A program made the translations under genes and the position numbers. 64,000 nt of DNA. Origin: a bacterium. GTDB taxonomy: Bacteria > JAHJDO01. Positions 371 to 52,793 of the stretch are shown here, piece after piece (position 1 is the first letter of the stretch; each line of letters starts with the position of its first letter). The stretch is taken from positions 3,841 to 67,840 of the forward strand of contig JAUSPT010000024.1 of NCBI GenBank assembly GCA_030652805.1, read 5' to 3'. The notes beneath the pieces are model-generated. The model was not told where the DNA came from. It ran no database searches and saw nothing but the letters and a program-made list of their open reading frames with translations.

Positions 371-3300
371 ATGATGAAGAGAATAAGGATGTTAGCGTGT
401 ATTATCTGCGGATTTGGTCTATTGTTGGTAAGTCCTGTCTGGGGTACGGATATTAATAAAGATGCTGTAGGAATATGGAAGATAGATAAAGGTGAAGGAA
501 CAACCTTAAAGGATAGCTCAGGAAACGGTAACAATGGAACTATTAAAGGAGCAACATGGGTGAAGGAAGGTTCTGGGTGGGCATTAAGTTTTGATGGCAG
601 GGACGACTCTGTGGAAGTTCAGGACGCTCCCTCCTTAAGGCTTCAGCCTCCTTATACCATGGGTGTATGGTTTAAGACTACCAGCTCGAATGATGGGATG
701 TTTCTTATTGGTAAATCCAGGGGGTATGCCTATTGTCTTTTCATCACCCGCCAATCCAAATACTTGAGTAATAATATGCGGGCAACGGATGATAAGGTTT
801 ATAATATTGCGCATGTTTTAAAAGAAGAGAATGAAACCTTTGCTGATGATATATGGCATTTTGTAATAGGAACGGTAGAAAAAGGTAAGATAAAATTGTT
901 TATTGACGGAGAGTTAAAGGGGGAGAGAGAGTATCCGGAAGAGCTGAGTGTCCTGCACAGCGAGAACACGGCTCTCTCTCTGGTTATGGGGAGATGGGCT
1001 AAGGCGTATTATCAGGGAATGATTGGAGAGGCATTCATTCTCAAAAGAGCCATGACTAAAGAGGAAATCAAAATTCTCTTTGAGGAAGAAAAGAAAAAAT
1101 ATAGGGGAATATCCCTCAGGAAGACGTCGGACAAGCCGGTTATAGACGGCAAACTTACTGATACCTGCTGGCAGAACCAAAGACCATTAACCAATTTTTA
1201 TTTAAATAATATTGGTATCGAATTAGCCAAAAAACAGACGACTGCATATCTGACCTACGATGATAAGAATATATACGTGGGATACAGGTGTCAGGAGCCG
1301 CAAATGGCAGGAATAAAAGCACATATAGCTGATCATGATGGTCCTGTCTCGAGGGATGACTGCGTAGAATTTTTTGTCTCTCCAAAAGGAGAAGATGATT
1401 ATGTTTACTACCAGTTTATCCTGAACACCAATAATGCTTTATTTGACCAGAAGATAGCATGGAATGTCGAACACTGGGATAATCCTTTCTATGAATTTGA
1501 TTCTTCATGGAACTGCAAAGGTCTCAAAAGCGCCATTTATAGCGGGCAAGATTACTGGTCAGCAGAGATAGCCATACCTTTTTCTGAGCTTGGAGGGATT
1601 CCTAAACCAGGTGATAAGTGGCGCTTAAATCTTGCCAGAGAAGAGACCCAGTCAGGTGAATTAAGTACATTCTCCTCATTAGTAGGAGGTTTTCATCAAC
1701 CCAAACATTTCTCCAGAATAGATTTTGAAGATAATATAGCTATTCTAACCAGAGCCAAGAAGCAGTTTTTTGATACCTTGACAGTAAAAAGAGAACGGCC
1801 GCTCTATAAAGAATTGCTTACTGATAAACCGGGTAGTTATATAGTTCATAACTGGCAGCATTGGGGTAGTGAGAGCGCTATGAAGAAGTATAAATTAACC
1901 ATGGATGAATGGATAAAGATGAGGTTTGAGCGAATGGAGGAAGAAGCTAAGATTGGGATGATGGGAACGTGTTTACCCTGGTCACTCCGAGGTAGAACTC
2001 CTTGTGATACTCATAAAACACGCTTGGAACTTCACCAGAAATATGGCGCAATGGTAAATGCTCAATTTGCTAGTCAGGATGGCTGGTGTCTCCGGCAAAA
2101 AGCATTAAAAGAGGGAGCGGTCTTACAAAATCAAGGAGAGCCATATCATGTCCATGAGTCATGTTCTATTCTCGACCCGGTCTATGTAAAATTACTAAAG
2201 AAAAGCCTGACTGACTATGCCTATAAATACAAAGACCTGCCTTATCTCTATGCCTGGGAAGGAGAGGATGAACCTACCTTCCCTCTATATCGAGGCGATA
2301 TCAATACTGCTCCTGACTTGATAAAGAAGTGGAATAAGGAAGTAAAAAATAATTATGGATTTGGTAAGTATGAAATGCCAAAGTGGAAAAAGAGCCGATG
2401 GGCAAGACCTATGGCTGGAGAGGTTTTTAGTTATATTGCCTATAATAGATGGGCAGCTCAGAAGTATCTAGAACGGAATAAAGAACTCTATCAAATAGCA
2501 AAAAGGATTACTCCTAATATTAAGTTTTGCGCCGGGAACTTGGGTACTATCCACGGTATTGACACCTTTGACCATATCGGAATAGCGGAATATAGCGATA
2601 TTATGATGAACGACCCTTATGCTTCCGCTGAAGCAGGAGGTAGAGGAAGAGGGACGTTCAATCATGGTTTTGCCACTAAGCTTACGTATGATTTATCAAA
2701 TGGAAAAGACGTTTGGACAATCATTCAAGCATTTACTCATTACGGATTTAAGGCTACTCCGGATAGATTGAGGGAATGGGTTTCTCAATCTCTAAAGAAT
2801 GGCGCAAAAGTAATTGACTACCTAGAAGACGATGATTGTCTCAGCAATAAGCCTCTCTATCAGGAGATGTTGAGATTAGCTGGTATTATCACAAAAATGA
2901 ACAAAATAAGAATTCCTAAAGATTCTGATACGGCTATTCTTTATCCTTATTATTCCTCTTTTGCTGATGGCCGCTTTACAAATGCTGACGAGGTATATAC
3001 AGCCTATTCTCTTCTGGGGGAAAGGATTGGCTCGTGGTTCACATTCATAAGCGATTTCCAGATAGAAAAAGGACAAAAGAAGCTTTCTGATTACAAAGTG
3101 ATTTACATTCCCAGAGGAGATTATTTAACCGAGGAGATAGCAAAGAAAATAGAAGATTACGTTAGGAACGGCGGTATTGTAGTAGCTGGTGACCCAGGAA
3201 TATTCAACTGGAATATCAATGGAGAAAGTTTAGCCAACTACCGGGAGAGAATATTTGGTGTTAAGGTGAGAAATAAAATACAATCAAAGGAAATGATTGT

Positions 3301-3610
3301 AAATGGAAAGAAGTTACCTGTTTATATGGATAACGATGCAAGCAGTAGTAACTTTTACCGGAGCTATCCAGTTTATAAAATAGAAGTAGTTGGCTCTAAG
3401 GCAAAAGTAACAGGCTATTTGGAAAATGGGATACCGGGGGTAGTTGAGAATAAGTATGGTAAAGGCAGGGTAATATACTTTGCGGTAAATCCTTTTATTC
3501 CTCGGGCTGTCTTTGAACCCGCCTGGAGTGATTTTTTCAGGGAGATTCAAACTACAGCCGGATGCAAGATAGATCAGGATATATGGAATTTTGAACTGCA
3601 TGGAAACTAA
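371..3610 (+). CDS. Secreted multidomain glycoside-hydrolase-like protein: signal peptide, LamG domain, CBM9/DOMON-like domain, and a C-terminal GH42-type trimerisation (ThuA-like) domain.
   Basis: N-terminal signal peptide MMKRIRMLACIICGFGLLLVSPVWG. LamG-like block with the same DE..IYNRALT-type motif (GEAFILKRAMTKEEI). CBM9-like block (DGKLTDTCW...YLTYDDKNIYVGYRC...DDCVEFFVSP). C-terminal KVIYIPRGDYL...NGGIVVAGDPG is typical of the beta-galactosidase trimerisation domain. 1079-aa ORF with no internal stops. Confidence 0.55.
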   Translation: MMKRIRMLACIICGFGLLLVSPVWGTDINKDAVGIWKIDKGEGTTLKDSSGNGNNGTIKGATWVKEGSGWALSFDGRDDSVEVQDAPSLRLQPPYTMGVWFKTTSSNDGMFLIGKSRGYAYCLFITRQSKYLSNNMRATDDKVYNIAHVLKEENETFADDIWHFVIGTVEKGKIKLFIDGELKGEREYPEELSVLHSENTALSLVMGRWAKAYYQGMIGEAFILKRAMTKEEIKILFEEEKKKYRGISLRKTSDKPVIDGKLTDTCWQNQRPLTNFYLNNIGIELAKKQTTAYLTYDDKNIYVGYRCQEPQMAGIKAHIADHDGPVSRDDCVEFFVSPKGEDDYVYYQFILNTNNALFDQKIAWNVEHWDNPFYEFDSSWNCKGLKSAIYSGQDYWSAEIAIPFSELGGIPKPGDKWRLNLAREETQSGELSTFSSLVGGFHQPKHFSRIDFEDNIAILTRAKKQFFDTLTVKRERPLYKELLTDKPGSYIVHNWQHWGSESAMKKYKLTMDEWIKMRFERMEEEAKIGMMGTCLPWSLRGRTPCDTHKTRLELHQKYGAMVNAQFASQDGWCLRQKALKEGAVLQNQGEPYHVHESCSILDPVYVKLLKKSLTDYAYKYKDLPYLYAWEGEDEPTFPLYRGDINTAPDLIKKWNKEVKNNYGFGKYEMPKWKKSRWARPMAGEVFSYIAYNRWAAQKYLERNKELYQIAKRITPNIKFCAGNLGTIHGIDTFDHIGIAEYSDIMMNDPYASAEAGGRGRGTFNHGFATKLTYDLSNGKDVWTIIQAFTHYGFKATPDRLREWVSQSLKNGAKVIDYLEDDDCLSNKPLYQEMLRLAGIITKMNKIRIPKDSDTAILYPYYSSFADGRFTNADEVYTAYSLLGERIGSWFTFISDFQIEKGQKKLSDYKVIYIPRGDYLTEEIAKKIEDYVRNGGIVVAGDPGIFNWNINGESLANYRERIFGVKVRNKIQSKEMIVNGKKLPVYMDNDASSSNFYRSYPVYKIEVVGSKAKVTGYLENGIPGVVENKYGKGRVIYFAVNPFIPRAVFEPAWSDFFREIQTTAGCKIDQDIWNFELHGN

Positions 3611-3658
3611 AAATACTGTGAATTTTTACATTACCAACAAATCAGCGGGAGCATAAGA

Positions 3659-4750
3659 ATGACAAACAAAATCAATGCTGGGTTTATAGGGGTTGGGGCT
3701 TTTACAGATAGAATGCATCTTCCTCACACACTCGCTAATCCAAAATACAGGATTCACACTTTATGCGATTTAAATAAAGATTTATTAAAAGAGAGAGAAA
3801 AACAGTATAAACCAATAAAAACAACAACTGATTACCATGATATTTTAAAAGACCCGGAAATCGACATGGTTTTTATTGGCTCACGCCACGATAAACACGC
3901 TTTTTTTATAGAGGAATGCGCTAAAGTGGGTAAAAACGTAATGGTTGAGAAACCAATGGCTACAACAAATGAAGAATCGAGAAAAATAATTGATTGTGTG
4001 GATAAATCAAACATAAGACTTATGGTTGGTTATAATAGACGGTTTTCTCAGGCAATGATTGATGCAAAAAAAATATTCCAGGAAAATAAATCAACCGCAA
4101 CCAATGTATATTACCGCATGGCTGATGAAAATAAAGATATGGATTATTATGGCTTTGACGTGGATAAATTCGGAGGACATCTGGTTACAGAAGTTTGCCA
4201 CATATTTGACCTTTTATCGTGGTTTCTTGAAGAAGAGCCAAGGGAGATATATGCTGCAGGAGATCTAAAATCAAACCAAAATGTCACCATTACATTCATT
4301 AAAGGTTCTGTTGCTACTATCATAAACAGTACCAGAGGAACCCTGAACTATCCAAAAGAATACATGGAGGTTTTTTCAGGATACACAACTCTTGCAATTG
4401 ATTGGTTTTCGGAGATCCGTTTTTCAAAAGACGGAGAATATAGGCGAATTAATTATCCAATGAAGCGGGACGAAATCCCTGAGATTGTTTGCGAAAGTCC
4501 TAATATGACAAGTGAAGATATTTATAGGAAATATGAATTTATTGCTAAAAATAATCTATATTGGAAGAGAAAATTTCAGCCGGATAAAGGACACTATGCT
4601 GAACTCGATGTTTATGCTGATGCCCTGTTGAATGATAAACCGTCACCTGTTGATGAAAGAGATGGCGCAAGAGCAACTGCAATGGCGCAAGCTGCAAATG
4701 AATCAATCAAAAAGAAAGCCGTCCAGTCAATTGAGACTTTTTGGATTTAA
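3659..4750 (+). CDS. Gfo/Idh/MocA family NAD(P)-dependent oxidoreductase
   Basis: N-terminal Rossmann fold (AGFIGVGAFTDRMHLPH), then EKPMATT and GYNRRF motifs typical of the Gfo/Idh/MocA N-terminal domain. 363 aa. Confidence 0.75.
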   Translation: MTNKINAGFIGVGAFTDRMHLPHTLANPKYRIHTLCDLNKDLLKEREKQYKPIKTTTDYHDILKDPEIDMVFIGSRHDKHAFFIEECAKVGKNVMVEKPMATTNEESRKIIDCVDKSNIRLMVGYNRRFSQAMIDAKKIFQENKSTATNVYYRMADENKDMDYYGFDVDKFGGHLVTEVCHIFDLLSWFLEEEPREIYAAGDLKSNQNVTITFIKGSVATIINSTRGTLNYPKEYMEVFSGYTTLAIDWFSEIRFSKDGEYRRINYPMKRDEIPEIVCESPNMTSEDIYRKYEFIAKNNLYWKRKFQPDKGHYAELDVYADALLNDKPSPVDERDGARATAMAQAANESIKKKAVQSIETFWI

Positions 4751-4847
4751 AAAAAAGAATTCATATCAGTCACTCCCACTACTAAAAAAATTAGAACTTT
4801 GTGTTGAAATTAGGTATAATGCGGAAAACAGAGAGTAATATTTCGCA

Positions 4848-5040
4848 TGAAAGCCTTAAACTTCTTTGATTCCAATGGAATTTTGGGACAGCCTGTGTTT
4901 TCAAGTTCTACGGGCAAATTCGAATCTTATCTCAGTTCTGAGAAACTTATAAAAGAAATGGATCATTTTGGAATTGATTGTACTCTTGTATCTCACTGAG
5001 ATGCAGTCAATGATCATCCATCTGCAGAGAAAATTTTATC
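4848..5040 (+). pseudogene. Degenerate duplicate of the first ~190 nt of the downstream amidohydrolase gene (copy B at 6391-6585). It carries a 1-nt deletion after codon 4 and a TGG>TGA change.
   Basis: Direct nucleotide comparison: atgaaagccttaacttctttgattccaatggaattttgggacagcctgtg...tctcactgagatgcagtcaatgatcatccatct against atgaaacccttaaacttttttgattccaacggaattttgggacagcctgta...tctcactgggatgcagtcaatgatcatccatct. About 93% identity over ~190 nt, diverging after ...gatcatccatct. Confidence 0.8.
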
Positions 5041-5084
5041 GGATTCGCAATGATGGATTCTGTGAAGTAAAATTTTACAAAAGT

Positions 5085-5123
5085 AAGACAAATTTGCGTT
5101 GGTAATGCAAATTTGTCTTGACA
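5085..5123 (+). promoter_or_regulatory. Perfect 13-bp inverted repeat (AAGACAAATTTGC-N9-GCAAATTTGTCTT) overlapping a TTGACA -35-like hexamer immediately upstream of the AAA+ ATPase gene; operator-like.
   Basis: Read directly in the sequence at 5085-5097 and 5107-5119. TTGACA is at 5118-5123, about 30 nt upstream of the ATG at 5153. Confidence 0.5.
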
Positions 5124-5152
5124 TAGCCTAACATTAATGATACAAGTAGATT

Positions 5153-6382
5153 ATGACAGTACATGAAAATAAATATGTTCATAGAGAGCTTGAGAGCGTT
5201 TTAAAAAAAGTTGTCGAACATTTTCCTGCTGTAGCACTAACCGGCCCACGGCAATCTGGTAAATCTACTCTGCTTAAAAATATTTTTGGAGGAACTTATA
5301 CTATTATTTCCTTTGATGATCCAATCACAAGGGAAAGAGCAATTTCTGATCCCAAATCACTTATAAAGAGCGCTGGAGAAAAAATAATCTTTGATGAAAT
5401 TCAGCATGTTCCTCAGATTCTTTCATACATCAAAATACTCATTGATAATGATCGTCATAAGTATGGAAGGTTTATCATTACAGGCTCGCAGAAGTTCAGT
5501 CTTATCAGGAACTTAGGAGATACTTTGGCAGGCAGAATCGCCTTGCTTGACCTGCTACCATTTAGTATAGAAGAGAAAAAATGTGTATCTTTCTTGAAGA
5601 ATGAATTATCTGATGCACAAGGTAATTTTGAACACTGTTGTCTTCGAGGTTCGTTTCCTGAGATTACTATTCATTCGGAGATGGATTCTGATATATGGTA
5701 TGGCAGCTATCTTCAAACTTATTTAGAAAGAGATATTCGTACAATTTATAATATTGGTCTTTTGAGGGAATTTCAGCAGTTTCTGCGTTTATTGGCAGGC
5801 CGTTGCGCTCAAATATTAAATTTGAATAACTTTGCCAATGATTTAGGAGTGAGTGTTAATACGATCAAAAAATGGATTTCTGTACTGGAAGCGAGTCAGA
5901 TTATATACATTTTATCACCTTATTATCGAAATTTGGGGAAAAGGATTACAAAGAACCCAAAGGTTTATTTTCTAGATGTCGGATTAGTTTGTTATTTAAC
6001 AGGACTAAAGACTAAAGAACACTTGTTCAACGGTCCTTTGGCAGGGGCATTATTTGAGAATTTTGTTATTCAGGAAACAGTTAAATATTTCTCTGGTAAA
6101 GGAATAAGACCAAATCTTTTTTATTTGCGAACTCATAACGGTATGGAGGTGGATTTGATTATAGAGAAAGATATGCAGCTGTTTCCATTTGAAATCAAGC
6201 TAACCAAGACTCCAAGTATGGGTATTGCGGCACCTATTGAGAGGTTTAAAAAGATATTTTCAAAGCTAAATGTCAGCTCTGGCAAAATTGTTTCCTTGAC
6301 GGACGAGGATATGCCTTTAACAGAAAGTGTTTCAGCTCTGACTGTAAATTCTTATCTAAAGTGCCTGGATAGTTTTATTTGA
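5153..6382 (+). CDS. AAA+ ATPase of the AAA_14/DUF4143 family (ATP-binding protein), lying between the two copies of a 190-bp direct repeat
   Basis: Walker A LTGPRQSGKSTLL, Walker B IIFDEIQ, and a C-terminal region with the DUF4143 architecture (..NPKVYFLDVGL..). 409 aa. Confidence 0.7.
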   Translation: MTVHENKYVHRELESVLKKVVEHFPAVALTGPRQSGKSTLLKNIFGGTYTIISFDDPITRERAISDPKSLIKSAGEKIIFDEIQHVPQILSYIKILIDNDRHKYGRFIITGSQKFSLIRNLGDTLAGRIALLDLLPFSIEEKKCVSFLKNELSDAQGNFEHCCLRGSFPEITIHSEMDSDIWYGSYLQTYLERDIRTIYNIGLLREFQQFLRLLAGRCAQILNLNNFANDLGVSVNTIKKWISVLEASQIIYILSPYYRNLGKRITKNPKVYFLDVGLVCYLTGLKTKEHLFNGPLAGALFENFVIQETVKYFSGKGIRPNLFYLRTHNGMEVDLIIEKDMQLFPFEIKLTKTPSMGIAAPIERFKKIFSKLNVSSGKIVSLTDEDMPLTESVSALTVNSYLKCLDSFI

Positions 6383-7959
6383 AAGAAACAATGAAACCCT
6401 TAAACTTTTTTGATTCCAACGGAATTTTGGGACAGCCTGTATTTTCAAGTTCTACAGGCAAATTCGAATCTTATCTCGGTTCTGAGAAACTTATAAAAGA
6501 AATGGATCATTTCGGTATTGATTGTACTCTTGTATCTCACTGGGATGCAGTCAATGATCATCCATCTAGCGGCAATGCAAAATTGATAGAGGAGATTAAA
6601 GGGCATAATAGATTGTTTCCATGCTGGTTTGTTATCCCTCATCACACAGGAGAAATGCCTGAACCGAAGAAACTCATTAAAGAAATGATCTCCAAAAATG
6701 TCAGAGCAGTGAGATTATTCCCTATATTTCATAATTTCAGTATGGAAGAATGGTCAATAGGTCCTCTGCTGAAAGAACTGGAAAAGAACAATATCCTTGC
6801 TATTGTTCACTGTCCTACGGATAAGTTATATGACATCTGCAAAAAGCATAAAGAGCTTAATATTGTGGGATTAGCTCCATTAAGAGAACTTTATCCTCTT
6901 CTTGAAAAATTCGACAATTTATACGCTTCTCTGGAATACTATCCTGATAACAATCTGGTAGAGGACATATGCAGGCGTTTTGGAGCACACAGACTTGTAT
7001 TTGGAACAAGGCAGAAGGATCCATATGACACTCATTCTAATGTTTCAGCTAACTGGGTATCCGGTCCAACAAAGGCTATGGTTGAGTATGCCAATATTAC
7101 TGATGAAGAAAAACAAATGATAGCAAGCGGTAATTTGAAAAAATTATTAAAAATATCTTCCTGCCCGTTAATTAAACATAAGCCGCTTCCGAAACTTCCC
7201 TGCCCCATCATTGATTCTCATTTTCATCTGGGTGATATTGCATATAAGTACAAATCGGGGACTGATGTAGGCTCAATAATTAAAACTATGGATATTATAG
7301 GAGTAAATAAACTATGCATAAATTCCACAAGTGCGGTTAATGGTGCAACTCACTATGATGGAAATAATTATATCGGGTCTATATGCAAAAAATATCCTGA
7401 GAGATTTATTGGGTTTGCCGTAATTAACCCTAATTTCAATGATACTGAGGATGAAATCAAGAGATGCATTGAAACATTGGGATTAAAAGGAATAAAAATT
7501 CATCCGAGGATTCATCAGTGTAAGCTTTCTGATAAAAAATATAAACCTGTTTGGGAAGCTTCTGAAAAATACGGAATCCCTATACTTTCGCATACTGGAG
7601 AAGGTCAATTCGGAAGCAGTCCTGAAGCATTTGAACACATATCCGGGAAGTATCCAAAAGGAATATTTTTACTCGGTCATTCTGGAGATAATCTGGAGGG
7701 GCTGAATATTTGTATCGAAATTGCCAAAAAAAGGGATAATGTCTATCTTGGGACATCTGATATTGTGTTTGCATATAACGGAATATTAGAATATACAGTT
7801 AAACAAATTGGTGCAGATAAAATCTTGTTTGAATCCGATGCCTGTTATCTGGATTTCAAGTACTCGCTGGGTATTATTCTCTATGCGAAGATAAGTGACG
7901 AGGATAAGGCAAAGATATTAGGTCTTAATATGGCAGGAATATTAAAATTGAAACATTAA
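6379..7959 (+). CDS. Tandem amidohydrolase-2 (TIM-barrel metal-dependent hydrolase) domain protein; probable true start is the ATG at 6391 (MKPLNFF)
   Basis: Second half opens with the canonical Amidohydro_2 motif IIDSHFHLGD and contains downstream HTGEG and ESDA motifs. The first half is a more degenerate copy of the same fold. 526 aa. Confidence 0.6.
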   Translation: MKETMKPLNFFDSNGILGQPVFSSSTGKFESYLGSEKLIKEMDHFGIDCTLVSHWDAVNDHPSSGNAKLIEEIKGHNRLFPCWFVIPHHTGEMPEPKKLIKEMISKNVRAVRLFPIFHNFSMEEWSIGPLLKELEKNNILAIVHCPTDKLYDICKKHKELNIVGLAPLRELYPLLEKFDNLYASLEYYPDNNLVEDICRRFGAHRLVFGTRQKDPYDTHSNVSANWVSGPTKAMVEYANITDEEKQMIASGNLKKLLKISSCPLIKHKPLPKLPCPIIDSHFHLGDIAYKYKSGTDVGSIIKTMDIIGVNKLCINSTSAVNGATHYDGNNYIGSICKKYPERFIGFAVINPNFNDTEDEIKRCIETLGLKGIKIHPRIHQCKLSDKKYKPVWEASEKYGIPILSHTGEGQFGSSPEAFEHISGKYPKGIFLLGHSGDNLEGLNICIEIAKKRDNVYLGTSDIVFAYNGILEYTVKQIGADKILFESDACYLDFKYSLGIILYAKISDEDKAKILGLNMAGILKLKH

Positions 7960-11222: not shown

Positions 11223-11911
11223 ATTAACCTGTGTTCCTTAAAACTGAAATAGCCTTCAAGTCCTATAATAATGTGATCCAGCACATTAACATCTACAGTA
11301 CCGAGCGCTTTAATCAATACCTGTGTTATGTTCTTATCATCCTCTGAGGCTGTAAGACTTCCTCCTGGATGATTATGTGCAAGAATAACAGATACAGCTT
11401 TGTTCCCTAAAGCATGTTCCACTACCTTGCGAGGGTAAACCACTGCTTTATTTACAGTACCAACGTGTATTGTCTCTACTTTAACAGGTCTGTTGGCTGT
11501 ATTAAGGAAAATAACCTTAAAAATTTCATCCTTAGCTCCTCTTAATGAGGCTTGTAAGTAATCATAGACTGCTTTTGGTGAAGATATTATATTCTCCTGT
11601 TCCAAAAGATTCTCTAACAAGTACAAGGGAACAGCCTCTCTAAATAGATTAATAAGAGTAGCTGCATTTGTGCCCATCCCATTTACTGTACTTAGCGCTT
11701 CTATTTCTGCATCAAAGACCCCTCTAACGCTTTTAAACTTTTTAAGCAATGCTTTAGCGATTGGTTTTGTATCCTTACGAGATATTGCATAGGTAAGTAT
11801 CAATTCAAGAATTTCATAATCATGCCAATTGCCAAATCCGCTCTTTAGGTACTTTTCTCTAATTCTCTGTCTGTGTCCCAGATAGTCAGGCTTTGCTATT
11901 TTATTTTTCAC
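11219..11911 (-). CDS. radC: RadC-like JAB/MPN domain protein (UPF0758)
   Basis: JAMM motif HNHPGGSLTASEDD, plus an N-terminal helix-hairpin-helix-like region. 230 aa. Confidence 0.85.
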   Translation of the reverse strand: MKNKIAKPDYLGHRQRIREKYLKSGFGNWHDYEILELILTYAISRKDTKPIAKALLKKFKSVRGVFDAEIEALSTVNGMGTNAATLINLFREAVPLYLLENLLEQENIISSPKAVYDYLQASLRGAKDEIFKVIFLNTANRPVKVETIHVGTVNKAVVYPRKVVEHALGNKAVSVILAHNHPGGSLTASEDDKNITQVLIKALGTVDVNVLDHIIIGLEGYFSFKEHRLI

Positions 11912-11927
11912 CTTGAAATCCCTTCTG

Positions 11928-12986
11928 TCATCTTTGTTTTTCCTTTTCTATTTTCAGTTCTTTCCTCATAGACTTTTTTAGGGTTTTCGCGTCAGGAAGT
12001 TTTTCTTTAAACTCTTTTGGCAATCTTTTGGTTAGGTAATATTCAGCCACTCCTACGGGTTTTTTAACACTTCGTAAAGCGTACTCAACAACAATATTGT
12101 CTTTATCCGCACAAAGAATAATGCCTATCGGCGGATTCTCATCTTTTAATCTTACCTGTTCGTCCAACAGATGCAGATAAAAATCCATCTTACCAGTATA
12201 TTCCGGCTCAAATTTACCGGTTTTAAGTTCAATCGCCACGAGACATTTTAGTTCGCGGTTAAAGAAGAGAAGATCGATAAAATACTCGTTATGCCCCAGC
12301 CTCAGCCTGTATTGATTGCCGATGAACGAAAACCCCTTGCCGAGCTCAAGCATAAACCGTTTCAGTCTATCCACCAGCCTTTTTTCTAATTCTCGTTCTA
12401 AAACAGGTTTTGCAATACCAAGGAAGTCTAAATTATAGACGCTCTTTATTGACTCATCAGCCTGTTCAGCAAGATGTTTTGGAAGGGCTTTAGGAAAATT
12501 GTGGGTTTTTCGCCTAAGGCTTAAAGCGTAAGCGTCCGCTTTTATTTGATTAAGAAGAACATTTCGCGACCAGCTCATCTCGACCGATGCTTTTAAATAA
12601 TACGCTCTTTCTTTTTTGTTTTTGATCTTAGAAAAAATAAGAATGTTGTGCCCCCATGGCAATTCTCCAACAGCCTGTTGGAGAATTGGATCATCTTTGT
12701 ACTCAAGATAAAATTGACGCATATACCAGAGGTTTTGAGCTGAAAACCCAAATGTGGTTTTAAAATCTTTCTGCAAATCATTTGCAAGTTTTTCAACGAC
12801 TGCGTTCCCCCATTTATATTTTTCCTGTCTTTCTACAATCGTTTTGCCGATATCCCAATATAGATTAATAAGCTCCTTATTAATTTTTCGGACGACCTTA
12901 ATCCTGGACGAAAGGATACGTGATTTAATTTCCTTAAAAAAATTCCTATATTCTTTACTTAACGCATTTCCCATGTTTATCTCCAT
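11928..12986 (-). CDS. PDDEXK nuclease, DUF1016/YhcG family
   Basis: C-terminal FIDLLFFNRELKCLVAIELKTGKFEPEYTGKMDFYL matches the YhcG-type PD-(D/E)xK core. N-terminal DUF1016-like helical region. 352 aa. Confidence 0.7.
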   Translation of the reverse strand: MEINMGNALSKEYRNFFKEIKSRILSSRIKVVRKINKELINLYWDIGKTIVERQEKYKWGNAVVEKLANDLQKDFKTTFGFSAQNLWYMRQFYLEYKDDPILQQAVGELPWGHNILIFSKIKNKKERAYYLKASVEMSWSRNVLLNQIKADAYALSLRRKTHNFPKALPKHLAEQADESIKSVYNLDFLGIAKPVLERELEKRLVDRLKRFMLELGKGFSFIGNQYRLRLGHNEYFIDLLFFNRELKCLVAIELKTGKFEPEYTGKMDFYLHLLDEQVRLKDENPPIGIILCADKDNIVVEYALRSVKKPVGVAEYYLTKRLPKEFKEKLPDAKTLKKSMRKELKIEKEKQR

Positions 12987-13137: not shown

Positions 13138-13623
13138 TTATCTGAATCCTATCCTCGGATTATCAATTTCATTCGCTTGGTTTTTCCAATATTCCAGTGT
13201 CTCATCCGGTGTAGAAAATACTCGTATTTTGTTTTTGTTAGAATTTTTAGACATAGGAAAACAGAGAAGATAACTCTTTACTTCTTCTCCTTCTTCAATT
13301 TTACTAATTTCGTTGTGGTAAATACCAATCTTAATAATGTGAGAAAATATTTGTAAAAGGAATTTGTCTTGGTCTATTTGTTTCTCATTTATATTCCATC
13401 TTACAAGCACTTTGTTAGCAATTCCCATATCAACTACAGACCAATCTTCATTGTCTTTAAGGATTTTAAAAAATTCATAATAGGAGGACTCCCTCTTATT
13501 GAGACGAAAACCTAGTCCATTATCCTTAAATGAGTATTCCGTTTTCCCTATACAAAACTCATTATCCTTTATATTTTCCATTTTCATGATTCTCCTTTTT
13601 GAAATTAGTGAAATTAGAGACAC
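13138..13623 (-). CDS. Hypothetical protein (no recognisable domain); likely start at the internal Met (MENIKDNEF)
   Basis: ORF only. It lies between the PDDEXK gene and the R-M genes and is co-directional with them. Confidence 0.35.
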   Translation of the reverse strand: MSLISLISKRRIMKMENIKDNEFCIGKTEYSFKDNGLGFRLNKRESSYYEFFKILKDNEDWSVVDMGIANKVLVRWNINEKQIDQDKFLLQIFSHIIKIGIYHNEISKIEEGEEVKSYLLCFPMSKNSNKNKIRVFSTPDETLEYWKNQANEIDNPRIGFR

Positions 13624-51461: not shown

Positions 51462-52793
51462 TTACCGGGATAATAAACAGGCTGGAATAAACAGGGCTTG
51501 AGTATCGTTTAACTGTCGGCTGTCAAGGAAATCTTTTGTAACAACCAATGTATTTTTAGCATTTATCTGACTCATGCCACTTTTCATTGCTCTGGGAACC
51601 TTTGCCGATTTAAGCGGTTGATATTTAACTTCAATAGCCATATCCCTGATTAAAAAGTCTATTTCGGTACCACTGTAAGTCCTCCAAAAGGATACGGGGT
51701 TGGCTATATCTTGAAGTCCTGCCAGTAGTTGGAATATTACGTTTTCAACCAGATGACCTTTATCTATCCGATCCGATAACGGAAGGAACTGATTAATAAG
51801 TGCATTGCGTATGCCTGTATCATAAAAATATGTTTTAGGTGATTTAATAACTCTTTTCTTCACATTAGAAAAATACGGCGGTATCAAGTCAACTACGAAT
51901 GTAACCGAAAGGATATCCAGATACCTCTGCAGGGTGCGATATGTGATTCCAAGGGGAGTAGTAAGTTCAGAATAGACCGTCAGGCTGCCTATTTGACCGG
52001 CCAGAATCTTAATCAACTGAGTAAAAGAGCCCAGATGATCTATATCAAATAGGGTGTGAATATCCTTGCGCAGATAATCATTGATAATACTCTGAAGGCG
52101 TTTCTGCTTAATATCTGCTGAATCGGCCATAACCACGGCTGGGTGACCACCGTAAACAGTATATTCTTCAAAAAGCGGTATCAGTCTCTGTAGAAAAGGT
52201 TGTATCGCAGGAGGCTCTGGCATCCTTTTCCCAAAGATATTTCGCAAACAAAATTTTTCGGTGAGTTCCGATAACTGATGCTCCTGCCTAAAATTGAGAA
52301 ATTCTTTGAATGCAAGAGACTGTAGATGAAATTCCTGTTTCCTACCGGGCAGAGTGTCCTTGAATTTTTTCCGTAATCCGGTAGATGAGGAACCCGAAGC
52401 GATTATTTTTATTTCAGGGTGGTGGTCAACAAGAAGTTTTACCAGTTGAGATGGATTGTCCAAATACTGAATTTCGTCAATGAACAGATAAAGAATACGT
52501 TTTGAATGAAATTTTTTCCCGGCCAGGCGCAAATGTTCTAATAAAGCTGAAACACCGCTATTACAGATTTCCAGGTCGGCAGAAGATTCTAAGTCGAAAA
52601 AAGCTATATTTTCAAGATTTGCTATTTTAGTCTTAAGTAAATACTGGGCCAGAAGAAACATAAGGCAGCTTTTTCCCACCTGTCTGGAACCAACGATAAT
52701 AATAGATTCACGTTCAGACAACCATGGGATAATTTGTTCCATAATATCTCTTTTGTTTAACTTGCGATTGACGACATCTTCAGTTTTTATCAT
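51462..52793 (-). CDS. AAA+ ATPase, AAA_14/DUF4143 family (second copy in the window)
   Basis: Walker A VGSRQVGKSCL, Walker B LFIDEIQ, and a C-terminal DUF4143-like region (KTYFYDTGI). 443 aa. Confidence 0.7.
   Translation of the reverse strand: MIKTEDVVNRKLNKRDIMEQIIPWLSERESIIIVGSRQVGKSCLMFLLAQYLLKTKIANLENIAFFDLESSADLEICNSGVSALLEHLRLAGKKFHSKRILYLFIDEIQYLDNPSQLVKLLVDHHPEIKIIASGSSSTGLRKKFKDTLPGRKQEFHLQSLAFKEFLNFRQEHQLSELTEKFCLRNIFGKRMPEPPAIQPFLQRLIPLFEEYTVYGGHPAVVMADSADIKQKRLQSIINDYLRKDIHTLFDIDHLGSFTQLIKILAGQIGSLTVYSELTTPLGITYRTLQRYLDILSVTFVVDLIPPYFSNVKKRVIKSPKTYFYDTGIRNALINQFLPLSDRIDKGHLVENVIFQLLAGLQDIANPVSFWRTYSGTEIDFLIRDMAIEVKYQPLKSAKVPRAMKSGMSQINAKNTLVVTKDFLDSRQLNDTQALFIPACLLSR

Follow-up and report, generated by a model that had tools for sequence, protein, structure and literature searches.

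Free-standing homing endonuclease genes, for example seg and mob of phage T4, are single nuclease genes with a promoter of their own and sharp boundaries. They contain no transposase and no terminal repeats, and they spread by homologous repair with co-conversion of the flanks, a process that depends on homology to the left and to the right and produces no duplication. Prophages in tRNA genes and SXT in the 5' end of prfC are integrative elements that carry a replacement end of the gene they interrupt; these elements are tens of kilobases long and use a tyrosine or serine recombinase and a short core site. In the one-ended rolling-circle transposition of IS91/ISCR elements and in the 3' transduction by LINE-1, one end is fixed and a variable host flank is carried on one side. 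In this study, we analysed a 64,000-nucleotide (nt) stretch of bacterial DNA (contig JAUSPT010000024.1, positions 3,841 to 67,840; hereafter the window, in whose numbering positions are given unless a relative is named), in which an AAA+ ATPase-nuclease gene of the DUF4143 (PDC-S01) family is bracketed by a direct repeat of the start of an amidohydrolase gene. On a modest balance of the evidence, we regard this arrangement as a scar left when a mobile single-gene cassette integrated by homology-assisted recombination, and not as the footprint of a transposase.

The cassette resembles homing endonuclease genes in having a promoter of its own, sharp boundaries, and neither a transposase nor terminal repeats, in that some relatives carry the gene at a given locus and others do not, and in its proposed spread through homologous repair. 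It differs from them in the 177-nt duplication of the window, in a far larger protein that combines AAA+, winged-helix, and nuclease parts, and in the occurrence of near-identical cassettes in wholly unrelated flanks. With the integrative elements it has in common the direct repeats of the target gene, the restoration of that gene beside the element, and the displaced end kept as a stump, whereas the insert is 1.4 kb long, holds no recombinase, and has a repeat whose length varies by locus. The polarity of the cassette and the flank proposed to be carried on one side are reminiscent of IS91/ISCR and LINE-1, but HUH and reverse-transcriptase genes, ori and ter motifs, and any sign of a rolling-circle or RNA intermediate are all lacking. 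Since the promoter and the operator travel with the cassette, an RNA copy is also argued against.

DUF4143 has been classed as a PD-(D/E)XK fold whose function is unknown (PMC3424549). PDC-S01 is reported to rank fourth in frequency among prokaryotic defence candidates and, in some surveys, to be the most frequent single defence locus, with no experimental validation (PMC12988326, PMC13356809); the protein of the window matches its models and both Pfam domains (AAA_14 and DUF4143, COG1373). Homology-facilitated illegitimate recombination (de Vries & Wackernagel 2002 and Prudhomme et al. 2002, both as cited in PMC5361080) has been proposed to leave orphan fragments in effector-immunity arrays of type VI secretion systems (T6SS) and in Rhs arrays (PMC5361080). 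Those orphans resemble the present case in one homologous anchor combined with one illegitimate joint, in resident sequence kept as an orphan, and in copies that are allelic and not paralogous. They arise by replacement of toxin modules at conserved genes, whereas a self-contained, regulated nuclease cassette is concerned here; moreover, the process normally gives insertion-deletions, whereas the window shows a clean direct duplication. In the literature, which was searched incompletely, we found nothing on a palindromic operator, sharp ends, single-gene movement, flanking duplications, or their polarity for PDC-S01. Hence the family and its status as a defence candidate are known, and the operator, the bounded cassette, the roughly tenfold excess of duplications, and the polarity were not found described.

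Layout of the insertion and the native amidohydrolase locus

The direct repeat consists of copy A at 4847-5023 and copy B at 6391-6567, both on the plus strand, as are the native upstream block, the parts of the insert, and the intact gene described below. Each copy is 177 nt long, and the two align gap-free and in register with 9 mismatches (94.9% identity), their starts lying 1544 nt apart in direct orientation. The preliminary description had already placed the ATPase gene between two such copies; its length of about 190 bp and identity of about 93% are replaced by the values given here, and the 1-nt deletion it reported in copy A disappears in the gap-free alignment. The repeat comprises codons 1-59 of the amidohydrolase gene: its first base is that of the ATG, its last base closes codon 59, and the homology between the copies ends at 5023 and 6567. 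A TGG>TGA change at 4997-4999 (codon 51), as reported before, leaves copy A with an open reading frame (ORF) of 50 codons. Copy A, severed after codon 59, is thus a dead remnant, and copy B supplies codons 1-59 of the amidohydrolase gene that remains intact (6391-7959, 522 amino acids, profile match to PF04909).

The insert between the copies is 1367 nt long and contains a single gene, the only ORF of at least 60 amino acids being that of the ATPase-nuclease (5153-6382, 409 amino acids). The repeat abuts the insert on both sides and is confined to the 177 nt, so that a larger segmental duplication, which the preliminary description had named as a possible refutation, is not what was found. On the left, the junction reads GATCATCCATCTGCAGAGAAAATTTTATCGG, and a filler of 59 nt (5024-5082) separates the remnant from the palindromic operator; the filler has no similarity to the native gene or to other cassettes, matched nothing in 170 loci, and may be 5' flank imported with the cassette. 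On the right, an 8-nt tail of the cassette (AAGAAACA, 6383-6390) replaces the native ribosome-binding region before the intact gene, and copy B begins exactly at this 3' edge. A contig from the Logan collection (L001, run SRR13727525, 1570 bp), produced by another assembler, is identical to window positions 4939-6508 and spans both transitions, from the TGA-bearing copy A into the insert and from the insert into copy B. Because both inner junctions are reproduced in it, they are not an artefact of one assembler. This contig ends inside the 177-nt repeat at both sides.

The state of the locus before the insertion can be read from relatives. In L002 (GCA_018812485.1), which carries an orthologue of the amidohydrolase with 87% amino acid identity, a block beginning AAAATTAGAACTTTGTGTTGAAATCAGGTATAATGC leads directly into the intact gene without any ATPase gene. 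The window has the same AAAATTAGAACTTTGTGTTGAAATCAGGTATAATGC block ahead of copy A: its native upstream block at 4786-4837, comprising the promoter and 5' untranslated region of the amidohydrolase, matches L002 9943-9993 nearly base for base. Since this block matches the sequence ahead of copy A, copy A is the original 5' end in its original place, whereas copy B and the remainder of the gene stand behind the insert. The cassette therefore lies 177 nt into the ancestral amidohydrolase gene, and the insert itself shows no similarity to the native locus. An empty allele would have the native upstream block joined to CATCCATCTAGCGGCAATGC. The empty site that the preliminary description had proposed to look for thus exists in L002, and L003, with an 89% orthologue, also lacks the ATPase gene at the site; its presence there without the repeat in all relatives, the other outcome that would have spoken against an insertion, was not observed. 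Another relative, L165 (92% orthologue), was uninformative on the site, its contig beginning inside the gene.

Downstream, the window and L002 share synteny over genes for a short-chain dehydrogenase/reductase (SDR), a Trm112p protein, two family 4 glycosyltransferases (GT4), and RadC; they differ in the flank that lies upstream of the promoter block. The region upstream of the amidohydrolase differs in the window, L002, and L003; in L003 another gene, of which the C-terminal 46 amino acids are encoded at 1-145, ends 1 nt ahead of the GTG start of the amidohydrolase and has no match in the window or L002. The amidohydrolase gene itself is a recombination mosaic. In 177-nt blocks its identity ranges from 78 to 98% with L002 and from 75 to 95% with L003; the blocks at 178-354 and 1240-1416 of the gene are about 97% identical to L002, and that at 886-1062 is closer to L003 (94%) than to L002 (85%). 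This mosaic structure indicates frequent homologous exchange among these lineages.

No own promoter of the amidohydrolase gene was found in its present position, nor is a terminator predicted between it and the ATPase gene. Since no terminator is predicted after the ATPase gene, the amidohydrolase must be transcribed by read-through, and the intact gene is transcribable only in this way, from the native or the ATPase promoter. What the native upstream block still drives is the remnant alone, together with any read-through. The neighbouring genes encode a GH42-like/CBM9 protein, a GFO/IDH/MocA oxidoreductase, the amidohydrolase, the SDR, and glycosyltransferases. The ATPase gene thus lies among genes of sugar metabolism and is neither within nor beside known defence genes; for PDC-S01, embedding beside defence genes was the route by which candidates were discovered and is not a strict criterion of membership. 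Between 3500 and 8500 no Rfam family was detected, and there was no tRNA gene near the site and no anomaly in GC content.

The cassette, its probable operator, and its protein

The boundaries of the cassette were defined by comparing related ATPase genes with each other. Pairs of cassettes that are 86-95% identical at the DNA level share no similarity in the 2-kb flanks on either side, even at the protein level; these include L096/L097 (95.4%), L046/L047 (92.8%), L032/L106 (90.9%), L030/L035, L031/L033, L052/L138, and L037/L039. Their common block starts 0-50 nt ahead of the palindrome, and exactly at its first base in L060/L066, L071/L079, and L052/L138. At the other side it ends 1-10 nt past the stop codon in eight of the nine informative pairs, and the right junction of the window, at 8 nt past the stop, fits this 3' edge of the family. 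Window 5083-6390 (possibly 5024-6390) is therefore a discrete, horizontally moving single-gene cassette, which consists of the palindromic operator, a promoter, the DUF4143/PDC-S01 ORF, and 8 nt past the stop codon.

The insert contains no gene for a transposase (DDE, HUH, serine, or tyrosine), an integrase, or a site-specific recombinase, as judged by ORF and domain searches. There are no terminal inverted repeats between its ends, only the 5' palindrome being conserved, and no obvious short target duplications were seen. An operator half-site at the 3' end was considered and rejected, the best arm match near the stop codon (0.62) exceeding that inside the ORF (0.60) by a negligible amount. 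The length of the duplication is not fixed, being 177 nt in the window and about 40-250 nt elsewhere. As at attachment sites of integrative elements, direct target repeats stand at both junctions and the target gene is restored. The palindrome does not have the features of an integron attC site: it lies 5' of the ORF, overlaps the promoter, lacks a GTTRRRY core, and varies by clade, and the neighbours are metabolic or housekeeping genes (no formal attC model was run). A preference of the ATPase genes for gene boundaries was likewise rejected, the median distance on the 3' side being 141 nt against 95 nt for control genes; since these genes are not unusually near to ORF ends, the exact abutment to an ATG in the window is not a rule of the family. 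Many relatives lie on contigs of 1.3-1.7 kb that barely exceed the gene, and many longer contigs end less than 300 nt from it; assemblies seem to break at repeats around DUF4143 genes.

The inverted repeat at 5085-5119 (AAGACAAATTTGC-N9-GCAAATTTGTCTT) has perfect 13-nt arms at 5085-5097 and 5107-5119, or, if extended, 16-nt arms with 94% identity. It is unique in the window, and none of 100 shuffled sequences reached it. As the preliminary description had stated, the right arm overlaps a TTGACA box (5118-5123); after a spacer of 17 nt follows TACAAG (5141-5146), giving a putative sigma-70-type promoter at 5118-5146 as read from the sequence, and the ATG begins 6 nt later at 5153. A scan for consensus promoters did not list this TTGACA/TACAAG pair. 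The same palindrome was found in the corresponding position in L005, L006, L010, L088, L020, L028, and L123.

For a wider comparison of the palindrome, 160 loci with relatives of 41-75% identity were fetched. In most of them a palindrome of 25-35 bp lies 0-45 nt ahead of the start codon, and its sequence follows the protein clade: it is AAGACAAATTTGC...GCAAATTTGTCTT in the clade of the window, AATGCAAATTTAAA...TTTAAATTTGCATT in the 50-57% clade, and TGCAATTTTGCATTTGAAATGCATAATTGCA in the 41-46% clade. Within the clade of the window, the similarity between loci starts at the palindrome, covers the spacing of the TTGACA and -10 boxes and the 6-nt gap to the ATG, and stops downstream at the stop codon. 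Counted over about 170 relatives, most keep the palindrome. Judged from these alignments, the palindrome marks the 5' edge of the conserved cassette. It is most likely an autoregulatory operator bound by the winged helix of the protein itself. The -10 box ends 6 nt before the ATG without a Shine-Dalgarno sequence, a spacing that is kept in L005, L006, and L010; because this distance is so short, the mRNA is probably leaderless in the window and in these relatives.

The preliminary assignment of the gene as an AAA+ (DUF4143) ATPase was borne out by scores above the gathering thresholds. AAA_14 matched residues 25-141 with 94.1 bits (cut-off 27, E value 9e-27), and DUF4143 matched residues 192-350, C-terminal to the ATPase and over the full length of the model, with 163.3 bits (cut-off 28.1, E value 5e-48). 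The PADLOC profile PDLC04790 of PDC-S01 matched residues 7-400 with an E value of 4.2e-98. In 20 relatives with 57-75% identity, the Walker A residues G31, K37, and T39, the Walker B residues D81 and E82, and the nuclease residues E302, D334, E347, and K349 were invariant. The AlphaFold model (predicted local distance difference test score, 85) has an AAA+ core, a middle part that is helical/winged-helix, and a C-terminal domain of the alpha/beta type, and its best fold matches among solved structures were PabY2304, RuvB, Orc1/Cdc6, and RFC subunits; at the sequence level no relative was found in the PDB. The closest database relative of the protein is 76% identical.

The window holds a second, diverged DUF4143/PDC-S01 gene at 51462-52793 on the minus strand, as had been described, which encodes 443 amino acids, matches the PDC-S01 profile PDLC04789 at 9e-81, and is 25% identical to the gene of the insert. 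No repeat flanks it, and there is no near-identical second copy of the cassette within the 64-kb window. Paired diverged DUF4143 genes (25-42% identical) often occur within a few kilobases of each other, some in tandem, in L006, L011, L012, L034, L099/L101, L126, L127, L137, and L139; such pairs suggest repeated insertion at the same spots or the formation of islands. Among 72,556 plasmids, 319 carry a relative of the protein; phage records with one numbered only 4. On the plasmid pEMTOL02 of Emticicia oligotrophica (L166, NC_018749.1, a finished isolate), a DUF4143 gene at 2519-3685 lies antisense between araA and araD of an araBAD operon, 39 nt from araA and 58 nt from araD, with no flanking repeat.

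Flanking duplications among related genes

The preliminary description had raised the question of whether duplicated host sequence is a general feature of the flanks of DUF4143 genes. We compared the 600 nt upstream with the 600 nt downstream of each gene on the same strand, counting repeats of at least 40 nt, and used other ORFs of 150-900 amino acids on the same contigs as controls. Flanking repeats were found for 18 of 140 ATPase genes and for 3 of 351 controls (odds ratio 17, p=4e-8). After removal of the window itself and of the multicopy or tandem cases L014, L034, L091, and L143, two-copy duplications remained at 13 of 139 ATPase genes against the same 3 of 351 controls (p=1e-5), an excess of about tenfold. 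Duplicated flanks are therefore a feature of a significant minority of these genes and not of the majority. When the flanks were compared at the protein level (tblastx), 27 of 132 ATPase genes and 18 of 106 controls were positive (p=0.5). This version responds to old paralogous neighbours and so fails to separate the two groups; enrichment was confined to high-identity repeats at the DNA level.

Some repeats proved to be of another kind than target duplications and were kept out of the count. The repeat of L014 is a tandem array, and those of L074 and L091 have three copies each. In L074, a long-read chromosome, a gene for a HipA toxin (11340-12605, minus strand) is bracketed by a repeat of about 80 nt (13142-13221) that belongs to the same three-copy family as the repeat beside the ATPase gene. 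The repeat of L034 represents three paralogous starts of small peptides: at 4311-4400, 5720-5896, and 7238-7271 the start of a small ORF (M-x-E/K-KKWQRPKLTVL...) occurs three times, resembling tandem genes for precursor peptides and interleaved with two DUF4143-like genes. In L143 the repeat consists of dispersed units of about 60 nt; such units (AAAATCCCACTCCGG...GCTTTCGCCAA...) lie around the ATPase gene at 315-440, 1976-2101, and 3866-3952 of L143 and at 2222-2317 of L154, as a small repetitive element.

Where the duplications are coding, they correspond to the end of an adjacent gene. In L067 the last 100 nt or so of rsgA are repeated, in L024 the 3' end of a gene for an extracytoplasmic function (ECF) sigma factor, in L028 the 3' part of a convergent gene, and in L012 and L085 the first codons of the downstream gene together with 22-38 nt upstream of it; those of L011 and L061 are intergenic. 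L067 parallels the window. As judged from the relative L172 (80% amino acid identity), its stump keeps the ancestral C-terminus (...KEIS*/...KEII*) and the downstream flank, and the intact rsgA copy ends in codons derived from the cassette (...KEIK*).

The arrangement is polar. In four clear cases (the window, L012, L024, and L067) the operator (5') side carries the stump, and the intact gene is found on the side of the stop codon (3'); L028 and L085 are probable further cases, and none has the opposite order. In L085 a run of about 22 C residues (30-60) stands beside the upstream copy of the repeat and may be an artefact of assembly or sequencing, which is why this locus was counted only as probable. 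The downstream repeat begins 8-39 nt after the stop codon in seven cases. Unrelated filler of 6-150 nt lies between the stump and the palindrome, on the operator side only.

The two copies of a repeat are nowhere identical, their identity being 77-98% and mostly 83-92%. In the window, the nine differences comprise six synonymous, two non-synonymous, and one nonsense change, and the synonymous share was 6/8 in L067, 13/23 in L024, and 9/16 in L028. As a strict null model we assumed one neutral copy and one copy under selection, for which the expected synonymous fraction is 0.35-0.41; this replaced a naive expectation of 0.21. The pooled value of 34/56 exceeds the 0.38 expected under this null (P=5e-4). 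Furthermore, three of the four changes in copy A of the window that could be assigned with an outgroup are synonymous, and three further differences between the copies lie at sites that also vary between L002 and L003. The differences between the copies are allele-like.

Origin of the duplication and meaning for the family

The preliminary description had seen an insertion that duplicated the start of its target gene through a recombinational or site-specific process, too long for a classical transposon target-site duplication, in a family of suspected mobile or defence nature. This view held in all tests that were run, its mechanism being the part that we infer. In the integration that we somewhat favour, the cassette would arrive from a related lineage with a piece of the host gene on its 3' side, and integration would run through the homology of this carried piece. 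In one route, a circle of 1544 bp, composed of the cassette and one copy of the repeat, would integrate by a single (Campbell-type) crossover. In the other, a break at codon 59 would be mended by one-ended homologous repair and its operator-side end joined illegitimately, a course known as homology-facilitated illegitimate recombination. Both routes would leave the resident stump, the filler, the cassette, an imported or chimeric gene start, and the rest of the gene, in this order. The predicted donor state has the cassette directly before the ATG, with the cassette 3' end followed by ATGAAACCC and without a stump. That the nuclease of the protein itself makes the initiating breaks is speculation on our part. 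A carried 3' flank predicts the polarity as it was seen, and by either route the copies would be of different lineage origin.

Several points weigh against this integration. Between 87 and 90% of the relatives have no flanking duplication, so that the usual mode of insertion is different. The enrichment was measured mostly on metagenome assemblies, and the controls were mostly core genes rather than other frequently transferred genes. Six complete plasmids from isolates had no clear flanking duplication (one weak match of 38 nt), a sample too small for any conclusion. The synonymous bias of the window taken alone is borderline (P=0.05 under the strict null), and later allele replacement after a de novo duplication could produce such a bias as well. 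The polarity could come from selection, since a target without a promoter needs read-through from the ATPase gene. Finally, there is no donor or closer relative among the sequences, and the circle and the crossover point were not seen.

The main rival is an autonomous, transposition-like insertion, in which the element's own ATPase-nuclease would nick the two strands 177 nt apart and gap filling would create a long target duplication of variable length, with the allele differences introduced by later recombination. We hold this to be unlikely. A discrete cassette with sharp ends and intact nuclease and ATPase motifs is what such an insertion would leave, but a second recognition site is lacking at the 3' end, and no multiple identical copies were seen within the window, the closest database relative being 76% identical. 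That the duplications start at the 3' edge of the cassette (8-39 nt past the stop codon in the seven cases) agrees with it, whereas the filler of variable length (6-150 nt) on the operator side only does not. Lengths of about 40-250 nt at many unrelated targets, including the intergenic ones of L011 and L061, could reflect staggered nicks, but about 87-90% of the insertions have no duplication at all. The mosaic amidohydrolase makes a later allele replacement plausible; however, no identical or near-identical copies exist among the repeats (77-98%, mostly 83-92%), and the differences are biased to synonymous sites.

In a two-step rescue, which appears improbable, the cassette would have disrupted the gene at codon 59, and a 5' fragment from another strain would later have been joined downstream under selection. 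The allele-like differences between the copies, the frequent recombination of the amidohydrolase, and the absence of the native ribosome-binding region before the intact copy are in agreement with such a course. It would, however, need an illegitimate joint placed exactly at the ATG and at the usual cassette edge, 8 nt past the stop codon, and two rare events at each of more than ten loci, and it leaves the intergenic duplications of L011 and L061 and those of non-essential ends unexplained.

That replication slippage or a local duplication (segmental or tandem) arose around an already resident ATPase gene is very improbable and is largely refuted. The copies are direct and 1544 nt apart, as such a process would give, but the ATPase gene is absent at the site in relatives, the repeat is only 177 nt long and abuts the insert on both sides, the insert is unlike the native locus, and the pattern recurs specifically at DUF4143 genes. 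Least probable of all is a chimeric assembly of two strain variants, because, although the window comes from a metagenome-assembled genome and a 5% difference between the copies resembles strain variants, an independent assembler gave both inner junctions including the TGA of copy A, a copy with a nonsense codon is no functional allele, a de Bruijn join at gene position 177 requires a k-mer in common, which only a real duplication supplies, and such repeats are rare around the control genes of these contigs.

A broader proposal for the family can be put forward, which we consider doubtful and offer tentatively: DUF4143/PDC-S01 genes may be a new class of recombinase-free, single-gene selfish elements, bounded by a palindrome and self-repressed, that would spread with the help of homology through breaks of their own making and would sometimes carry 3' host DNA, giving rise to long duplications of target ends. 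For annotators, the scars mean that short "duplicate" ORFs beside these genes are stumps of the interrupted neighbour, and they provide a sequence signature by which acquisitions can be dated and traced. PDC-S01 also gains a concrete, testable biology in the form of autoregulation, mobility, and insertion scars, and the question arises of whether its abundance comes from immunity or from selfish spread. If the proposal is true, genes counted among the commonest "defence systems" of bacteria and archaea would be, or would also be, selfish elements.

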